56,518 nucleotides of DNA from Thermodesulfobacteriota bacterium. GTDB lineage: Bacteria; Desulfobacterota; Desulfomonilia; UBA1062. Numbering within the stretch: position 1 is the first letter of the stretch; each line of letters begins with the position of its first letter. A model generated the notes under the pieces. It was given only the letters and a program-made list of their open reading frames with translations. It did not search any database and had not been told where the DNA came from. This document shows, piece after piece, positions 2,154 to 16,378 of this stretch. The DNA is taken from contig JALOOZ010000012.1 in assembly GCA_025454155.1 (NCBI GenBank), positions 1-56,518 of the forward strand, given 5' to 3'. The position numbers and the translations under genes were made by a program.

Positions 2154-4280
2154 CTATACTACCACGAGCGCATCCGCCACGAAAGGCTTTCCCTCCCTCA
2201 CGATGATGGGATTCAGGTCGATCTCCCTGATCTGCGGGAAATGGATGGCGAGCCGACCCAGGGCCATGAGGATATCGCCCAGGGCTTCCCTGTCCACGCG
2301 ACGCATTCCCCTGTAGTCATCAAGGACGAGACGGGAGGCAATGCCGTCCATCATCTCGAGGGCGTCATGCCGCGTCAGGGGAGCCAGTCTCATGGAAATG
2401 TCATCGAGGGCCTCGGTGAACACGCCCCCCAGACCGAAGACCACGCAGGGAGGAAATCCCGGATGGCGCGTCATCCCCGCCATGAGCTCGCGGTCTCCCA
2501 CGAGCATCTCGGAAACCAGGAGCGGTGAATGCTGGTCCCTGGCGCGAATGGCTTGGTAGGCAGCCGCCAGCTCGTCCTGATCCTTCAGGTTCAGGTGAAC
2601 GAGGCCGAGCTCGGTCTTGTGTGCAATGGCCGGCGAGCAGACCTTGAGAACCACGGGAAAGCCGATCTCGCTGGCCTTGAGCCTGGTCTCTTCGAGGGTC
2701 CCGGCAAGGGCTTCGCGGGTTGAGGGTACGCCGTAAACCCTGAGGAGCTCTTTTGCGCCGAACTCGTCGATCCCGTCAAGGCGGGCCTTCTCGAGGATGC
2801 GCACTGCAGCCTCGAGGGGTTTGCCGTTATGCCTTGTTTCGACATGGCTCCGCTGCCTGATTCGCAGGTGACCGAGGAATGCACCCATCGCCCTGGCAGC
2901 CTTCTCCGGGGCATCGAAGGTGGGGATGTGGTTCTCATGGAAGGTCCGGATGCAGTGGTCTTCCTTGCCGAAGAAGGAAGAGATCAGCAGCGGCTTTCCA
3001 TAGTGATCCGGCATGGCAGGGAGCTTGTCAAGGCCGATGGTCATCATCTTGATGAAATCCTCCCTGGTTATGGATGCAACGCTGCTGATCAGCGGGTACA
3101 GCAGCTCCATGAATCCCGTATCCATGATGCCGTGGATGATGATGCCGTCCACTTCATCACAGGAGAAGAGCACCTTCGGTATCTCCTCGGTGAGGGCCTT
3201 CATGTCCACGTGGAAGGTCAGATCGATGGGATTGCGGGGGCTTGCGTGCCCGGGTAGAAACACGCTGACCTGCCTCTGCATCTCCATTGAAAACTCGGGG
3301 ACCTCCAGGCCGACCTTGTTGCAGGTGCTGGCGATGGCAGTCCCGGGTCCTCCCGAGTTGGTGAGTACGGCTATCCGCCTGCCCTTCAGCGGCGGCTGGG
3401 TGGCCAGTGCCCACCCGACCTTGTAGACTTCCTCGATGCTCTCCACGGGGATGATGCCCGCCTGTTCGAAGAGCGCCTCATAGAGGTGGGACGGACCTGC
3501 CATGGCCCCCGTATGGCTGGAGCTGGAGCGCGCCCCCGCCTCGGTACCTCCCACATACTGCGCCACGATGGGTTTGATGCGGCTCACCCGCGAGGCCACG
3601 TCGAGAAACCTTGACGCATCTCTGATCCCCTCGATGTAGAGGCCTATGGCCCGGGTATGATCGTCGGCACCCAGGTATTCGATGCAGTCGATGAGGTTGA
3701 TGTCCGCCTCGTTTCCCACACTGATGGCCTTGCTCAGGACGATGCCGTTCTTGTGGAGATAGGTGACCACCTGTGCGACGTAGGTGCCGCTCTGAGATGC
3801 AAGCCCGAGCTTTCCTCTGTGGTCTTGAATGGGTGCGACGGTTATGTTCAGGGGAAGGTGGGTGTTCACGATCCCCAGGCAGTTGGGACCGAGAAACCGT
3901 ATGCCGTGGTGCCGGGCGCGATCGATCAGGGCTTTCTCCATGAGCCCCCCCTGTACGCCGGTCTCCCGGAATCCGGCAGTGATGATGACCATGCGTCTTG
4001 TGCCCAGCTTTCCGAACTCCTCCACCATGTCGAGCACCAGAGGCGTGGGAACGACAAGCACCGCCAGGTCCGGGGCATAGGGGAGATCGGCGATGGCCCC
4101 ATATGCCTTTTTCCCGAGCACGGTGGATTCCCTCGGATGGACGGGAAGGATCTCGCCGGTGTAGCCGCACGTGGAGAGGTTCAGGCACTGGAGGGTGCCC
4201 ATGGTGGTGAAGTTGTTGCTGGCGCCGACAAAGGCGATCGAAGATGGATTCATGAGTGCCGTAATAGGATTTTCTGCCAT
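2154..4280 (-). CDS. Acetate/acyl--CoA ligase, ADP(NDP)-forming, fused alpha/beta subunits
   Basis: ORF 2154-4310. It has an N-terminal CoA-binding domain (IAFVGASNNFTTMG), a succinyl-CoA-synthetase-like ligase domain and a C-terminal ATP-grasp (EFGAKELLRVYGVP...GFPVVLKV). ATG 4280 (MAENP) is preceded by gggaga; the GTG at 4310 is an alternative start. Confidence 0.85.
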   Translation of the reverse strand: MAENPITALMNPSSIAFVGASNNFTTMGTLQCLNLSTCGYTGEILPVHPRESTVLGKKAYGAIADLPYAPDLAVLVVPTPLVLDMVEEFGKLGTRRMVIITAGFRETGVQGGLMEKALIDRARHHGIRFLGPNCLGIVNTHLPLNITVAPIQDHRGKLGLASQSGTYVAQVVTYLHKNGIVLSKAISVGNEADINLIDCIEYLGADDHTRAIGLYIEGIRDASRFLDVASRVSRIKPIVAQYVGGTEAGARSSSSHTGAMAGPSHLYEALFEQAGIIPVESIEEVYKVGWALATQPPLKGRRIAVLTNSGGPGTAIASTCNKVGLEVPEFSMEMQRQVSVFLPGHASPRNPIDLTFHVDMKALTEEIPKVLFSCDEVDGIIIHGIMDTGFMELLYPLISSVASITREDFIKMMTIGLDKLPAMPDHYGKPLLISSFFGKEDHCIRTFHENHIPTFDAPEKAARAMGAFLGHLRIRQRSHVETRHNGKPLEAAVRILEKARLDGIDEFGAKELLRVYGVPSTREALAGTLEETRLKASEIGFPVVLKVCSPAIAHKTELGLVHLNLKDQDELAAAYQAIRARDQHSPLLVSEMLVGDRELMAGMTRHPGFPPCVVFGLGGVFTEALDDISMRLAPLTRHDALEMMDGIASRLVLDDYRGMRRVDREALGDILMALGRLAIHFPQIREIDLNPIIVREGKPFVADALVVV

Positions 4281-11652: not shown

Positions 11653-13554
11653 TCAGAAGCTCATCTTCGCCGCGAACCTGTATGTCCTTCCGGCCACCGG
11701 GTAATAGAACGTTCCCCACTGCGTCTTGCTCACGTACTCGGGGGTCTGGTCGTCAAAGAGGTTGTCCACCTTGAAGGACACGTTGACATTGAGCCCCAAA
11801 TCGTACAGGACCGCGGCATTGAGGAGGTACCGGCTGTCGGTCCTGGCCGTGTTCGCCTCGTCTTGGTACGATCTTCCCCTGAGCTGGTAGGATACCGTCA
11901 GCGTGGCGGCCCTGTCCAGGATCTCCGGGTAGAAGTCAGCCTGGAGGTTGAGCACCTGGGAGGGCTTCTGCCCCAGTTCATTCCCTTCGTACGGACCGCT
12001 CTCATAGGTGTATCTGCTCAGGATGTAGTTGGCGGAGAGCATGACCTTCTCGGCAGGTGCAGCCCAGGCATGTGCCTCGATGCCCTGCGCCAGGACCTTG
12101 TCCACGTTGATGTAGGTAAAGGCCTCTGGCTCGGGGAAGTCCATCTTGATGAGGTCCCGGTAGGTGGTGCGGAAGTAGTTCACTCCGGCCCCTACGGCGT
12201 TCAGGGCAATGACCGGTCCTATGTCGTAGCTCAACGATTTTTCCGGCTCGAGCTCGGGGTTGCGGATGAAGGTGTACCAGGTCGAAGGTGCGTAGAGCTG
12301 GCCCATGGTGGGCTCCCGGTACCCGGTGCCGACATTGGCCTTGATCTGGACCTGCTCGAGTAGCTTCCAGGCTGCACCTGCGTGGTAGGACCATCGGTCA
12401 TCGAACTCCGAGCTGTTGTCAAACCTGCCGCTTAGCTCGAGGCATACTGGACTCACGTCGATGCCGGCTGACAGGACACCGCTGCCCGTGCCGCGCTCGT
12501 GGGTCCCGTACTCGTCGCTGTCCATGCGCTCATGCAGGTATTCGAGGGAGGGGCTGAGCTCGATGGCCCCCATCGTTCTCGTATAGGCGAGCACAAGGGC
12601 CTTGTCCACGAGCTTTTGCCTGCCATCACCGAATACGCTTTCGGTGTGCGTCCTGTTGACCAGCATCCAGGTGCGCAGCTTCATCGATGCGTTGTCGGCA
12701 AGATCCCGGAAGGCCTCGACCAGGTAGGTGTCCTGAACGGTGCTCACCGCGTCATCCGGGGTGATGACCCCTGCGGAGCCTTCACCCCCGGGTGAACCGT
12801 TCTCTTGGTTGATACGGTTTCCCATGAGCGAGGTTTTCCACCCCTGGACATCGAAGGCCGCCTTGAACAGGCCGGTGGTGTTCACATAGCCGTTGTTGTC
12901 CCTTCTCGCAGTGGTTCCGTCATCCCGCTGATAGCGGAAGTCGTTGTCTGCAAAGGAGTGCGTCAGATTTGCAAGGATGCCGACCTCCCCCGCAGTGATG
13001 CTCACGTGGCCGTGGTATAGGCCGTACCCGTAGGTCCCCTGGGATGCGGTGAGGTCGTATTCGTCGCTCAGGGATGGCCCGGCGGTGACGAGGTTCACGA
13101 CCCCGCCCATGGCTGCCTTTCCGAAGGAGGCGCTGTTGCTGCCCCTGATCACTTCGATCTGCTCGATGTCGGGCATCACGTACTGCGAAAGGTCCACGAT
13201 ATCGCCGGTGACCTGGTTCAGCGGGATGCCGTCGATCATGACGAGGGTCTGCTGGAAGTTCGATCCGCGCACCGACAGGGGTGACGGCGTAGCGCCGCCG
13301 TAGTCGGAGAGGTCTACAGACGAGGCATGCCTGAGCGTCTCTTCCGTGTCGATGAGCCCTGTGGATTCGCGGCCTGTGGTGATGATGTCTGAAAAGGAAG
13401 TTGGAGCCTTCCCGGACACGGAGCCCTGCAAAGCTTCTCCCGACGTGGGGGTCACGACGATGAGGATGTCGGAGGCCGCGGACAGGAGTACGGGGGAAGC
13501 GGGATGAAACAGAAGAAGACAGGTGAAAAGCGCTGCTGGAAGCCGGTGCGACAT
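11653..13554 (-). CDS. btuB: TonB-dependent outer-membrane receptor, BtuB-like (cobalamin/corrinoid uptake inferred from the riboswitch)
   Basis: ORF 11653-13617. The ATG at 13554 is preceded by ggagg. It has a signal peptide (MSHRLPAALFTCLLLFHPASPVLLSAAS), a TonB-box-like DILIVVTPT, a plug domain and a beta-barrel ending ...RTYRFAAKMSF (terminal Phe). A cobalamin riboswitch lies directly upstream. Confidence 0.85.
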   Translation of the reverse strand: MSHRLPAALFTCLLLFHPASPVLLSAASDILIVVTPTSGEALQGSVSGKAPTSFSDIITTGRESTGLIDTEETLRHASSVDLSDYGGATPSPLSVRGSNFQQTLVMIDGIPLNQVTGDIVDLSQYVMPDIEQIEVIRGSNSASFGKAAMGGVVNLVTAGPSLSDEYDLTASQGTYGYGLYHGHVSITAGEVGILANLTHSFADNDFRYQRDDGTTARRDNNGYVNTTGLFKAAFDVQGWKTSLMGNRINQENGSPGGEGSAGVITPDDAVSTVQDTYLVEAFRDLADNASMKLRTWMLVNRTHTESVFGDGRQKLVDKALVLAYTRTMGAIELSPSLEYLHERMDSDEYGTHERGTGSGVLSAGIDVSPVCLELSGRFDNSSEFDDRWSYHAGAAWKLLEQVQIKANVGTGYREPTMGQLYAPSTWYTFIRNPELEPEKSLSYDIGPVIALNAVGAGVNYFRTTYRDLIKMDFPEPEAFTYINVDKVLAQGIEAHAWAAPAEKVMLSANYILSRYTYESGPYEGNELGQKPSQVLNLQADFYPEILDRAATLTVSYQLRGRSYQDEANTARTDSRYLLNAAVLYDLGLNVNVSFKVDNLFDDQTPEYVSKTQWGTFYYPVAGRTYRFAAKMSF

Positions 13555-13616
13555 GGGGACACCTCCATGGAGTTTTCCCTTGGAGTCTCCACCCGGGTAC
13601 GCGGGTGTAGTCCGCA

Positions 13617-13753
13617 CTGCGGATAGGTCTTCTGACTCACGGTTTTCAGCAGTCCCGCCTTCCCGCTCGCGCAGTGGCCTAAAATGGGCTGCCCCGTCCG
13701 TTTACAGCGGCGTCCCCGTCCCGGATTTTCACCGGGTTCCCTTGAATCCGCAG
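13617..13753 (-). promoter_or_regulatory. Cobalamin (AdoCbl) riboswitch aptamer
   Basis: The minus-strand RNA reads CUGCGGAuucAAGGGAAcccGGUGAAAAUCCgggaCGGggaCGCCGCUGUAAacgg...GCCACUGcgcgagcGGGAAGGCggg...gAGUCAGAAGACCUaUCCGCAG. It carries the conserved core (AAGGGAA, GGUGAAAAUCC, CGCxGCUGUAA, GCCACUG, GGGAAGGC) and the B12 box (AGUCAGAAGACCU). P1 closes with CUGCGGA/UCCGCAG. The downstream SD sits inside the palindromic cuccauggag. Confidence 0.88.
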
Positions 13754-13766
13754 CAGGGTGATGTTT

Positions 13767-13796
13767 TTGATACCAGATGCGGCATCAGTGTGTCAA
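13767..13796 (-). promoter_or_regulatory. Candidate sigma70 promoter for the riboswitch-btuB transcript (TTGACA-18-TATCAA)
   Basis: On the minus strand, TTGACA (13791-13796), an 18-nt spacer and TATCAA (13767-13772). This lies about 14 nt upstream of riboswitch P1. Confidence 0.45.
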
Positions 13797-13856
13797 TAAA
13801 CCCGGCGGCTCCACATTCCCCTTGCAATGTCCCATAATCTCTGGCATATATGATCC

Positions 13857-13931
13857 ATGAAAACAGCATCAGCACCCACATATGCCGGCTATTATTTCTG
13901 GTTTTACGGGGCGTGGCCGCCTGTGGGCTGA
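13857..13931 (+). CDS. Candidate aromatic-rich leader peptide of aroF (24 aa: MKTASAPTYAGYYFWFYGAWPPVG)
   Basis: Too short for the ORF track. Read directly: atg aaa aca gca tca gca ccc aca tat gcc ggc tat tat ttc tgg ttt tac ggg gcg tgg ccg cct gtg ggc tga. It has six consecutive aromatic codons at 13890-13907, and 8 of 24 residues are aromatic. It is followed by a terminator hairpin before aroF. No strong SD is present. Confidence 0.5.
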   Translation: MKTASAPTYAGYYFWFYGAWPPVG

Positions 13932-13954
13932 GCTGTTCGGACACGAACACACCA

Positions 13955-13990
13955 GGCCGTGGGTGGTCACCTCCCACGGCCTTTTCCTTT
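13955..13990 (+). terminator. Intrinsic-terminator-like hairpin (candidate attenuator) in the aroF leader
   Basis: ggccgtggg (13955-13963), loop tggtcacct, cccacggcc (13973-13981), then ttttccttt (13982-13990). It lies 24 nt after the leader-ORF stop and about 50 nt before the aroF GTG. Confidence 0.55.
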
Positions 13991-14043
13991 GAGGCCCGGG
14001 AAGTGATCATCATGGCCGGAAGCAGAATAGAAAGGAGGCCAGT

Positions 14044-15063
14044 GTGATCATATCCATGAAAAAGGGTGCATCTCAGGAACAGATCGATCATGTCAAGACG
14101 CTCATCGAGTCCTTCGGATACCGGATCCACGAGAGTGTAGGAGCGGAGCGGGTCCTTCTTGGGGCTGTCGGCGACGAGCGCGGCAAAGAGAGGCTCACCT
14201 GTCTGGAGGCCCAGCCCGGGGTCGAGAGGGTTATCCGCATCCTGAGCCCGTACAAGCTTGCATCCAGGGAGACCAAGGCCGAATCCACCGTGGTGGACCT
14301 GGGGATGGGCGTGAAGGTGGGCGACAGCCGTATCGCGGTCATGGCCGGGCCCTGTGCCGTGGAGTCCAAGGAGCAGATCATGGAGGTTGCCAGGGTAATC
14401 AAGGAGAGCGGCGGACATGTGCTCCGCGGCGGCGCCTTCAAGCCGAGGACCTCTCCGTATGCCTTTCAGGGCCTGAAGAACGACGGTCTCCTGCTCCTTT
14501 CCATGGCCCGGGAGGAGTTCGGCCTCCCGGTGGTCACGGAGGTCATGGACATCGCCAGCATCGAGGTGATCCTTGAAAACGCCGACTGCCTCCAGGTAGG
14601 AGCGCGCAACATCCAGAACTTCCAGCTCCTCAAGGAGGTGGGCAGGGTCAACAAACCGGTCCTGCTCAAGCGCGGCATGTCCACCACCATCGAGGAGTTC
14701 CTCATGTCCGCCGAGTACGTGCTCGCGGGAGGAAACAGCCAGGTCATCCTGTGCGAGCGGGGTATCCGGACCTTCGAAACCGCCACCCGGAACACCCTCG
14801 ATCTCTCCGCCGTGCCCGTGCTCAAGGAGAAGACCCACCTCCCCGTCATCGTGGATCCCTCCCACGGCACCGGACACGCCCGCTACGTGGAGGCCATGTC
14901 CTATGCCGCCATTGCCGCAGGTGCGGACGGACTCATGATCGAGGTCCATCCCAAGCCGGAAGAAGCGCTCTCCGACGGGCCGCAATCATTGAGGCCGGCC
15001 GAGTTCGGACGGATCATGGAGGGGATTAAGCGTATAGCCCTGGCAGTGGGGAGGGATGTATGA
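14044..15063 (+). CDS. aroF: 3-deoxy-7-phosphoheptulonate (DAHP) synthase, type I-beta with an N-terminal ferredoxin-like regulatory domain
   Basis: 339 aa. The GTG start lies 5 nt after aaaggagg. The sequence is collinear with the Thermotoga-type enzyme as I recall it ([26 protein letters not shown]..., ...AGPCAVES..., ...[18 protein letters not shown]..., ...[17 protein letters not shown]..., ...VDPSHGTG...). Confidence 0.92.
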
Positions 15064-15634
15064 AAGGCTTGATTTCTCCCCCGCACGTTTCTACAATAGG
15101 ATTGTCATGGGATATTTCCGGCCTGAGCACAGGATAGCCGTCCGGTATGGCTCATCCCTGGCAGAGAGGGTTGTCTGCAAGGAGCTGAGCTGGAGCGTGC
15201 ACGGCATGTATGACGTTAAGACCCTGGCGGAATTCAATGCAGAGGAGCCCCGGGGGCGGGTCTTTGCGCAGCTACTGCGCGTGGAGCCGGTGCAGACCGC
15301 ACTGCCCTTCCACTACCGGGTCTGTCTGCGGGACCGAGAGATCCTCGAATTCATGGGTGAGAATACGGATATCGACCTTGTTTCCTTCATAACCTTCATC
15401 ATGACCCACGAGCTGCTCCATATTCACCGCTTTTCCACGGGCAAGGCCGATTTTTTCGGCGAGAGCCGGGAGGAGGAGGTCGTGGTTGATGCTCTGACCC
15501 GGGTGTTCCTGGCCAAGAACCCGGTCATAGGGCTGAAAAAGGTTCTGTCGCTTCTTGACAAGATCGCTGCTGCGCCACTATATAACGACCACATTCTGAA
15601 AAACGACCAGAGGTGCGTGAATGCCCATTTATGA
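15056..15634 (+). CDS. Hypothetical protein with an HExxH motif (possible metallopeptidase-like)
   Basis: 192 aa with ...[16 protein letters not shown]... (HELLH). No further family is recognised. It overlaps the aroF stop and the next gene start by a few nt, so the start could be a downstream ATG. Confidence 0.45.
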
Positions 15635-15896
15635 ATACAGATGTATGAAATGCCGGAATGAATTCGAAGAGATGCAGAAGTTCAGCGATACCCCTGTGAG
15701 CAGGTGTCCATCCTGCGGGGGGAAGGCGAAGAGGCTCATTTCCCGTTCGTCCTTTCAGCTCAAGGGATCGGGCTGGTATCTGACGGACTATGTCAAGAAG
15801 GGCTCGCCCAGAGACTCCAGGGAGAGCACGGGCTCTTCCGAGTCCACCACTGACCCGACCCCACCCGCATCCACTGCGTCGTCGAGTGACGACTGA
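15621..15896 (+). CDS. FmdB-family zinc-ribbon protein
   Basis: 91 aa: [34 protein letters not shown]... This is the CxxC...CxxC_SSSS ribbon, followed by a low-complexity Ser/Thr/Pro tail. Confidence 0.8.
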   Translation: MPIYEYRCMKCRNEFEEMQKFSDTPVSRCPSCGGKAKRLISRSSFQLKGSGWYLTDYVKKGSPRDSRESTGSSESTTDPTPPASTASSSDD

Positions 15897-15904
15897 ATCC
15901 TGCA

Positions 15905-16378
15905 ATGGCATTGACCCATCTCGACAAGAAAGGCCAGGTCGCCATGGTGGACGTGGGCGAGAAGTCCATAACCCGACGGATCGCCAGGGCAGGCGGCAGG
16001 ATAAGGATGGGCAGCGACGCCTTTGAAGCGATCATGTCCGACTCGGTCAAGAAGGGGAATGTCTTGGCCACGGCGAAGATCGCAGGGATCATGGCTGCAA
16101 AGAACACCGGTGCGATCATACCCCTGTGCCACCCGCTTGCCATAGAACACGTTGCCGTGGAGTTCTATCCCGATGGGGACACCTTCACCATCGAGGCCGA
16201 GGCCACGGTGAAGGTCAGCGGCCGGACCGGCGTCGAGATGGAGGCGCTGCACGCCGTGAGCGTGGCCCTGCTCACCATCTACGACATGGTGAAGGCCATG
16301 GACAAGTCCATGACCATCAGTGATATCCGGCTCGAAGAGAAATCCGGCGGCAGAAGCGGCCGCTACCTGAAACGGTAG
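15905..16378 (+). CDS. moaC: Cyclic pyranopterin monophosphate synthase
   Basis: 157 aa: MALTHLDKKGQVAMVDVGEKSITRRIARA...KGNVLATAKIAGIMAAKNTGAIIPLCHPL...GVEMEALHAVSVALLTIYDM... Confidence 0.95.
   Translation: MALTHLDKKGQVAMVDVGEKSITRRIARAGGRIRMGSDAFEAIMSDSVKKGNVLATAKIAGIMAAKNTGAIIPLCHPLAIEHVAVEFYPDGDTFTIEAEATVKVSGRTGVEMEALHAVSVALLTIYDMVKAMDKSMTISDIRLEEKSGGRSGRYLKR

Follow-up and report, generated by a model that had tools for sequence, protein, structure and literature searches.

INTRODUCTION

Attenuation of transcription through a leader peptide is a classical mechanism, known since trpL. In the Escherichia coli pheL-pheA and trpL-trpEDCBA systems (the Yanofsky model), the leader is organized in regions 1 to 4, region 2 is masked when the ribosome is on the stop codon and freed when it stalls, and the output is an intrinsic terminator; each of these leaders responds to one amino acid and governs a terminal branch of the pathway. 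For 3-deoxy-D-arabino-heptulosonate 7-phosphate (DAHP) synthase, the enzyme of the first common step, an example is known in Corynebacterium glutamicum: according to PMC11802643, which relays Neshat et al. 2014, an aromatic leader peptide, AroR, is placed on the DAHP synthase gene aroF and stalling on it raises transcription; the peptide contains Phe-Tyr-Phe and responded to Phe limitation only (same source). The aroR leader peptide was also detected by RNA-seq, as stated in PMC3890552. We describe here an element found upstream of a DAHP synthase gene in a contig of 56,518 nt (JALOOZ010000012.1, assembly GCA_025454155.1; called the window in what follows) from a Thermodesulfobacteriota bacterium of the Desulfomonilia (UBA1062). 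Its short leader open reading frame (ORF) contains the run Tyr-Tyr-Phe-Trp-Phe-Tyr, and comparison with relatives, combined with RNA folding, makes it very likely that the element is a leader-peptide transcription attenuator responding to the supply of aromatic aminoacyl-tRNAs.

The element is functionally analogous to aroR-aroF, as both consist of a short aromatic leader peptide upstream of a DAHP synthase gene. However, the run of the window has six codons for Tyr, Phe and Trp against the Phe-Tyr-Phe of AroR, the host belongs to the Thermodesulfobacteriota and not to the Actinomycetota, and the enzyme is of type I-beta with a ferredoxin-like domain. Because the phylum and the peptide differ, an origin independent from aroR is likely. 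With pheL and trpL the element shares regions 1 to 4, masking of region 2 at the stop codon, its release upon stalling and an intrinsic terminator, but it would sense three amino acids and act on the first common step; moreover, its leader has no Shine-Dalgarno (SD) sequence, its mRNA is probably leaderless, and its antiterminator is rich in G·U pairs, with a region 2 resembling a copy of region 3. Leaderless leader peptides have precedents: 14 were predicted in Deinococcus deserti (PMC4007540) and leaderless poly-Cys upstream ORFs were described in mycobacteria (bioRxiv 10.1101/834739). In those cases as well, the transcript opens with an ORF that has no SD and that precedes amino-acid biosynthesis genes; their start sites were established by mapping, whereas in the window it is the promoter spacing that points to a leaderless start. 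Another difference is that the Thermodesulfobacteriota considered here otherwise use strong SD sequences, as on the DAHP synthase gene itself.

The searchable literature, outside of which most subscription journals fall, gave no description of this element. The accessible text of Rodionov et al. 2004, on delta-proteobacterial regulons, mentions no aromatic attenuator, and that of the gene-context survey of the aromatic pathway by Song et al. 2005 has only generic predicted attenuators. An Rfam scan of the window returned, as the only match above the gathering threshold, a cobalamin riboswitch on the other strand; lowering the stringency to E values up to 10 over positions 13780-14060 revealed no leader family, only two implausible eukaryotic models. 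What is newly described is thus the conserved element, not its mechanism.

RESULTS

A leader ORF with six consecutive aromatic codons precedes the DAHP synthase gene

The leader, which like the DAHP synthase gene is on the forward strand, is located between two divergent genes. The leader ORF (13857-13931) has 24 codons and a stop codon, from the ATG at 13857 to the TGA at 13929-13931, and specifies the peptide MKTASAPTYAGYYFWFYGAWPPVG, in which 8 of the 24 residues are aromatic. Codons 12 to 17, tat tat ttc tgg ttt tac (13890-13907), form the regulatory run Tyr-Tyr-Phe-Trp-Phe-Tyr, or region 1; an extra Tyr codon is present 5' of it (13881-13883). Region 2 (13910-13926), the 5' strand of the proposed antiterminator, corresponds to the codons Ala-Trp-Pro-Pro-Val-Gly and has as its core GUGGCCGCCUGUGG (13913-13926). 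A small spacer hairpin, UGUUCG-GACA-CGAACA (13934-13949), begins 2 nt past the stop codon and would constitute the apical part of the antiterminator. Then comes a terminator hairpin, i.e. ggccgtggg (13955-13963), nine loop nucleotides and cccacggcc (13973-13981), followed by ttttccttt (13982-13990). Region 3 (13954-13972) comprises the left arm, A-GGCCGUGGG (13954-13963), and the loop, with 13957-13970 doubling as the 3' strand of the antiterminator; region 4 (13973-13990) comprises the right arm, CCCACGGCC-U (13973-13982), and the U tract, UUUUCCUUU (13982-13990). Directly after the U tract, region 5 (GGCCCGGG, 13993-14000) can pair with the right arm. The SD sequence aaaggagg (AAAGGAGG in the RNA, 14031-14038) precedes the GTG start at 14044 of the DAHP synthase gene, which ends at 15063 and codes for 339 aa. 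On re-reading the sequence, leader ORF, aromatic run, hairpin, U tract, SD and GTG were found where the original prediction, made from the letters of the window, had placed them.

The product of the 14044-15063 ORF matches the DAHP synthase model NF006421 with 495 bits (cut-off 335) and carries the PF00793 domain; the enzyme belongs to type I-beta, and its N-terminal regulatory domain is ferredoxin-like (PF18152). In the Thermotoga enzyme, the ferredoxin-like domain mediates feedback inhibition by Tyr and Phe.

The probability of six aromatic codons in a row had been put at about (5/64)^6 per position, and two lines of evidence dismiss chance as an explanation. When all six frames of the 56.5-kb window are considered, at least five aromatic (F/W/Y) codons in a row occur only at 13890-13907, and the number of six-codon runs expected by chance is about 0.03 [(5/64)^6 × ~113,000 start positions]; the stronger argument is that the run recurs in relatives, as shown below.

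The leader ORF is conserved and evolves as a coding sequence

Relatives of the DAHP synthase were sampled as 80 genome loci and 80 metagenome loci. The nearest ones are from uncultured Desulfomonilia-like Thermodesulfobacteriota, and the same ORF, run and hairpin were present in all 21 genome loci (L001-L021) whose DAHP synthase is at least 68% identical to that of the window. The mini-ORF was also found in 16 metagenome loci, 3 of them duplicates of other sequences, which gave a family of 35 distinct sequences (the window and 34 others; alignment A2). Mini-ORF, run and hairpin co-occur in 35/35, so that the predicted association holds in orthologous leaders. More distant DAHP synthase loci (~58-60% identity: Dadabacteria, Omnitrophota and many small-genome Thermodesulfobacteriota) had no such ORF. 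Clustered codons for the end products of the pathway, in the 5' leader of its DAHP synthase gene, are what an attenuator is expected to display.

Within the family, the mini-ORF lies ~100-120 nt upstream of the DAHP synthase gene. It is intact in every sequence, with 22 to 26 codons, and all indels are multiples of 3. The peptides conform to the pattern x(6-8)-[FY][FY]-G-[FY]-Y-F-W-[FY]-x(3-5)-P-P-V-G-stop. Two modes of conservation are apparent along the ORF. The aromatic codons vary synonymously but stay within their amino-acid class (TTT 63 versus TTC 46; TAT 102 versus TAC 16), and Trp is present within the core run of 33 of the 35 sequences. The last four codons, by contrast, are near-invariant at the nucleotide level, third positions included (CCG 26 and CCA 7; CCT 34/35; GTG 29 and GTA 4; GGC 31), as is the TGA (34). 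Outside of the run and of this nucleotide-fixed PPVG tail, the peptide sequence is not conserved. Selection at the amino-acid level on the run and at the nucleotide level on the tail is the combination expected if the ribosome reads the run and if the tail is an RNA pairing element. Distances are constrained as well: of 21 sequences measured, 20 have 21-24 nt between the end of the run and the stop codon and one, L016, has 33 nt; 18-24 nt separate the stop codon from the terminator stem in 35/35. The two sequences without a Trp codon in their run are L090:1310-1503 (…FYFYC…) and L091:302-492 (…YYFGFY…).

These data bear on whether the ORF is read at all. The leader could instead be a ligand- or protein-binding RNA in which the aromatic codons are incidental, or the ORF could code for a small protein with a function of its own; the lack of an SD, the fact that the leader RNA folds more stably than its shuffled versions (z = -3.5) and the lack of a matching Rfam family would suit such explanations. 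Yet translation is supported by indels that keep the frame, by start and stop codons that are maintained, by synonymous changes seen in the aromatic codons alone and by a run that retains amino-acid class and not bases. The peptide is unconserved outside the run, and three peptide classes with unrelated tails have in common only the run and the RNA logic (see below). We consider both possibilities very unlikely and conclude, from the pattern of nucleotide changes, that the leader ORF evolves as a translated sequence (frame-kept indels, kept start and stop, synonymous aromatic codons).

An intrinsic terminator is conserved between the leader ORF and the gene

The 13955-13963:13973-13981 stem is paired at 99.7% across the 35 sequences, and is the dominant consensus structure proposed by RNAalifold. 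Compensatory changes were observed at an internal pair (U-A to C-G, 3 sequences) and at the closing A-U pair 13954:13982 (to G-C, 2 sequences), together with G-C to G·U changes at several positions. All 35 sequences have a GC-rich stem of 9-10 bp with a U-rich tail behind it; in the window, the hairpin has a ΔG of -21.3 kcal/mol. An intrinsic terminator, as expected for an attenuator, thus lies between the leader ORF and the gene.

The sequence located downstream of the U tract complicates the picture. When the full-length leader of the window is folded, the minimum free energy (MFE) structure is not the terminator but a long hairpin that joins region 3 to 14000-14019 and, at its tip, region 4 to 13993-14000. 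The pairing of the segment following the U tract with the right arm is conserved, reaching -9 kcal/mol or lower in 32 of the 35 relatives. Sensing by the aromatic ORF could therefore be the same with an output that is translational, or exerted through mRNA stability, the hairpin and regions 5 and 6 serving to remodel the 5' untranslated region; the interruption by CC of the window's U tract also fits with this possibility. Against it, the 9-10 bp GC-rich stem with its U-rich tail is present throughout the family, and twice in the sister classes described below; the predicted structures leave the SD of the DAHP synthase gene unpaired, and regions 5 and 6 are transcribed only past the point where termination is decided. 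Such an output is quite unlikely. As regards transcription attenuation, the preferred explanation, our guess is that pairing of region 5 may keep the C-rich right arm off the SD in read-through transcripts. The 14000-14019 segment, which is able to pair with the left arm and loop of the terminator, is not followed by a second U tract.

The end of the leader ORF can pair with the left arm of the terminator

An attenuator also needs an antiterminator whose 5' strand is masked when the ribosome is on the stop codon and free when it stalls. The best candidate is provided by region 2: GUGGCCGCCUGUGG (13913-13926) and CCGUGGGUGGUCAC (13957-13970) can form 14 consecutive pairs, 5 of them G·U, and the latter segment includes most of the left arm and part of the loop of the terminator. 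The segment spanning regions 2 through 3 (13908-13972) folds at -36.2 kcal/mol, with the 13934-13949 hairpin at its tip, against -21.3 kcal/mol for the terminator. Across the 35 sequences, the 11-bp core of the antiterminator is paired in register at 97.4%, compared with 38-55% when the partner is slid by 1 to 3 columns, and the variable positions alternate only among G·U, A-U and G-C. In the window, the ORF tail and the left arm form a duplex with an energy of -29.0, versus -17.1 ± 3.2 for shuffled tails, only 0.1% of which reach the real value; in the family the median z is -3.6, with p ≤ 0.05 for 97% of the sequences. The third bases observed in the tail codons are only those which preserve the pairing of region 2 with region 3. 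The spacer hairpin, for its part, is present in 34 of the 35 sequences with at least six different stems (e.g. UGUUCA/UGAACA, GUUCUC/GAGAAC, UCUGCU/AGCAGA and GUCAU/AUGAC).

This pairing has a direct consequence for another proposal, according to which the Trp-Pro-Pro at the end of the peptide is a potential stall site sensitive to elongation factor P (EF-P). Such a stall is not needed to explain the Pro-Pro codons since their third positions are restricted to the bases keeping the 2:3 pairs; furthermore, L021 (…VLSVG) and L088 (…MLPAG) have no Pro-Pro and retain the pairing of region 2 with region 3. An EF-P-dependent stall may nevertheless act as an additional effect.

Not all results favour the 2:3 antiterminator. 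The column-shuffling control for this pairing in the 35 sequences was not significant: double-sided covariation is scarce because both strands are highly conserved, and the support for the antiterminator therefore comes from in-register pairing, from duplex energy and from the sister classes. A cruder measure, which counts left-arm bases paired to the ORF tail with region 4 absent, was positive in 35/35, 17/17 and 17/17 sequences, but shuffled tails also succeed in 56-68% of the cases; it was for that reason replaced by the duplex-energy z-scores. The 'protector' pairing of the aromatic codons with region 2 (1:2) amounts in the consensus to only 8 weak pairs, mostly G·U; in the window, the 13863-13936 segment folds at -33.9 kcal/mol. 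Lastly, the right arm is another possible partner of region 2 (2:4), with 88.6% of the cells paired across relatives. These points all weigh against the scheme, as does the broken U tract noted above.

The conserved 2:4 potential opens the possibility that the attenuator is genuine but uses another antiterminator, in which either region 2 takes the right arm or the upstream cacccac (13873-13879) takes the left arm. The original prediction had put forward the second pairing, between cacccac and gtgggtg, and it does exist in the window; the position of gtgggtg had to be corrected from 13960-13966 to 13959-13965. In relatives, however, only 60% of the cells pair, which is no better than the slid controls, and cacccac would be under or behind the stalled ribosome; this pairing was rejected. 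As for 2:4, it is a bulged helix of 5 + 4 bp closing a 45-nt loop and would have to compete with a perfect local hairpin of 9-10 bp, the left arm being closer to region 2; folding with a stalled ribosome selects 2:3, and the canonical 2:3 pairs of the sister classes are unable to pair with region 4. We regard these variants as quite unlikely. The two G-rich near-copies of the left arm, which had been suggested to compete for the right arm, most likely pair with the left arm instead (2:3), although a potential to pair with the right arm (2:4) is conserved as well.

Ribosome position switches the predicted structure

The effect of ribosome position was assessed by constrained folding up to the end of region 4, with the footprint of the ribosome masked. 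Without ribosome, or with the A site on the stop codon (13914-13944 masked), the terminator has a probability of 1.00. With a ribosome stalled on Tyr12 (13875-13905 masked), the MFE structure flips to the antiterminator and the probability of the terminator falls to ~0. The mutually exclusive structures that the original prediction had called for are therefore obtained under the two masks, and the 5' strand of the antiterminator behaves in silico as required, beside the conserved 2:4 alternative. When everything 5' of the front edge of the ribosome is masked, the terminator probability is 0.00 for Tyr12 and Tyr13, 0.78 for Phe14, 0.16 for Trp15 and 0.99-1.00 for Phe16 and Tyr17; for the last two the terminator is kept because the ribosome overlaps region 2.

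At equilibrium, the window and the relatives nearest to it reproduce the switch. For roughly half of the relatives, folding still yields the terminator at equilibrium in spite of the stalled ribosome, another point that weighs against the scheme. Equilibrium folding therefore cannot stand alone as a test of the switch, which must be kinetic, with 2:3 already in place when RNA polymerase gets to region 4. The E. coli trp attenuator, whose terminator also exceeds its antiterminator in stability, is understood as kinetic as well.

The proposed mechanism would operate as follows. Transcription from the TTGCAA/CATATA promoter would start at or next to the AUG and the leader ORF would be translated leaderless. 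If aromatic aminoacyl-tRNAs are plentiful, the ribosome would reach the UGA (13929) and cover region 2 (13910-13926) and the 5' half of the spacer hairpin, which it would melt; region 3 would then pair with region 4, and formation of the hairpin and U tract would end transcription before the gene. If any of tRNA-Tyr, tRNA-Phe or tRNA-Trp is poorly charged, the ribosome would stall in the YYFWFY run (13890-13907), leaving region 2 free to pair with 13957-13970 before region 4 is made. The G·U-rich antiterminator, capped by the spacer hairpin, would sequester the left arm and RNA polymerase would read into the gene. Coding conservation, selection at the amino-acid level, the compensatory changes in the terminator and the geometry of the antiterminator all argue for the ribosome-mediated attenuator that had been suggested, with a leader peptide containing codons for the three aromatic amino acids.

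The promoter spacing is indicative of a leaderless transcript

The promoter (13822-13850) consists of a -35 box TTGCAA (13822-13827), a 17-nt spacer and an extended -10 element, TGg-CATATA (13842-13850), of which CATATA occupies 13845-13850. In relatives, cTTGc/a - 17 nt - (TG)nCATAta is conserved, together with an A/T-rich stretch. Counted from the TTG of the -35 box, the first in-frame ATG comes at 35-36 nt in 30 of the 35 sequences and at 37-39 nt in the others; the expected transcription start is therefore at the A of the AUG (13857). No family member has an SD ahead of the leader ATG that is independent of the -10 element, while the DAHP synthase gene has an AGGAGG SD in all relatives. 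The leader ORF would lack an SD because transcription is predicted to start at its AUG. Judging from this spacing, translation of the leader mRNA seems most likely to be leaderless, although with less assurance than the attenuator itself, in keeping with the start that had been envisaged from TTGCAA-17-CATATA. A second candidate, TCCACA-17-CATAAT, picked by a consensus scan, was rejected as it is not conserved in relatives.

On the minus strand, a cobalamin riboswitch (RF00174, 13605-13766, 88.5 bits) heads a gene for a BtuB-like TonB-dependent receptor (11653-13617). Since this riboswitch-led gene is divergent, its promoter and that of the attenuator stand back to back. The same riboswitch/attenuator synteny is observed in L010 (riboswitch at 2469-2644, minus strand).

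Sister classes keep the same logic with different sequences

Aromatic-rich leader ORFs precede DAHP synthase in two further groups. One is made of Geobacterales-type genomes, including those of the cultured Oryzomonas japonica and Pelotalea chapellei, in which the peptides end in …SFYFWFGFYFRPSARVEV. The other comprises Syntrophobacterales-, Desulfobacteria-, Nitrospirota- and Methylomirabilota-type contigs, with peptides such as …FYFYFF..VCPFGG and …YYYWFFGPVGP…. An Rfam scan of the sister-class loci gave no match. Peptides and stems differ from those of the window class, but the aromatic run, a tail complementary to the left arm (by canonical pairs) and the terminator are all kept. Where the peptides have their conserved RPSA and VCP tails, the RNA again complements the left arm of the first terminator, as in CCGUCUGCCCGG with CCGGGCAGACGG and in GGUCUGCCCA with UGGGCAGACC. 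For the tail:left arm duplex, the median z is -4.6 in the Geobacterales-type sequences and -4.1 in the Syntrophobacterales/Desulfobacteria-type ones. By achieving the same complementarity with different stems, the sister classes offset the scarcity of covariation in the window class.

Two tandem terminators, each a hairpin plus a U tract, were noticed after the leader stop codon and ahead of the DAHP synthase start in the sister classes (loci L030, L050, L099, L121, L130, L128 and L129 of class C; L029, L034, L039, L042 and L048 of class B); the window leader has one. The right arm of the first terminator (e.g. CCCACGGC) and the left arm of the second (GCCGUGGA/G) are complementary to each other, and one sensing event could therefore reach both, by alternation of 2:3 and 4:5 with 3:4 and 5:6. 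The his operon attenuator operates through a multi-hairpin relay (A:B, C:D, E:F versus B:C, D:E) and has one terminator. The sister leaders resemble it in their chain of alternating hairpins leading to a distal terminator, but those of the Geobacterales and Syntrophobacterales types carry two terminators in tandem.

Taken together, these comparisons suggest a broader view, to which we give even chances. The element of the window may belong to a large family of attenuators, so far uncatalogued and probably leaderless, with three inputs (Tyr, Phe and Trp). This family and type I-beta DAHP synthase would have evolved in concert in Desulfomonilia, Geobacterales, Syntrophobacterales/Desulfobacteria and some Nitrospirota and Methylomirabilota. 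A two-terminator relay would have arisen from it in the sister lineages, the right arm of terminator 1 neutralizing the left arm of terminator 2, and in the window class the Pro-Pro tail might also park the ribosome on region 2.

Functional implications and neighbouring genes

The attenuator would put the committed step of the shikimate pathway under direct translational control, with one peptide integrating the three aromatic amino acids. Since the enzyme has a ferredoxin-like domain, allosteric control and the tRNA-charging signal would combine at the same step. The element accounts for a leader of ~190 nt left empty by gene callers, and provides annotators with a recognizable small ORF and RNA element, both so far unannotated, in many uncultured Thermodesulfobacteriota as well as in cultured Geobacterales; it could also be engineered as a compact sensor of aromatic amino acids.

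Downstream, on the same strand, a 192-aa ORF (15056-15634) without Pfam or NCBIfam match shares 8 nt with the end of the DAHP synthase gene. It is followed by a gene for a Zn_ribbon_8 protein (15621-15896), then by one for MoaC (15905-16378). A 418-aa ORF on the minus strand (13729-14985) is antisense to the DAHP synthase gene and its leader; it most likely exists only because the opposite coding strand is GC-rich.

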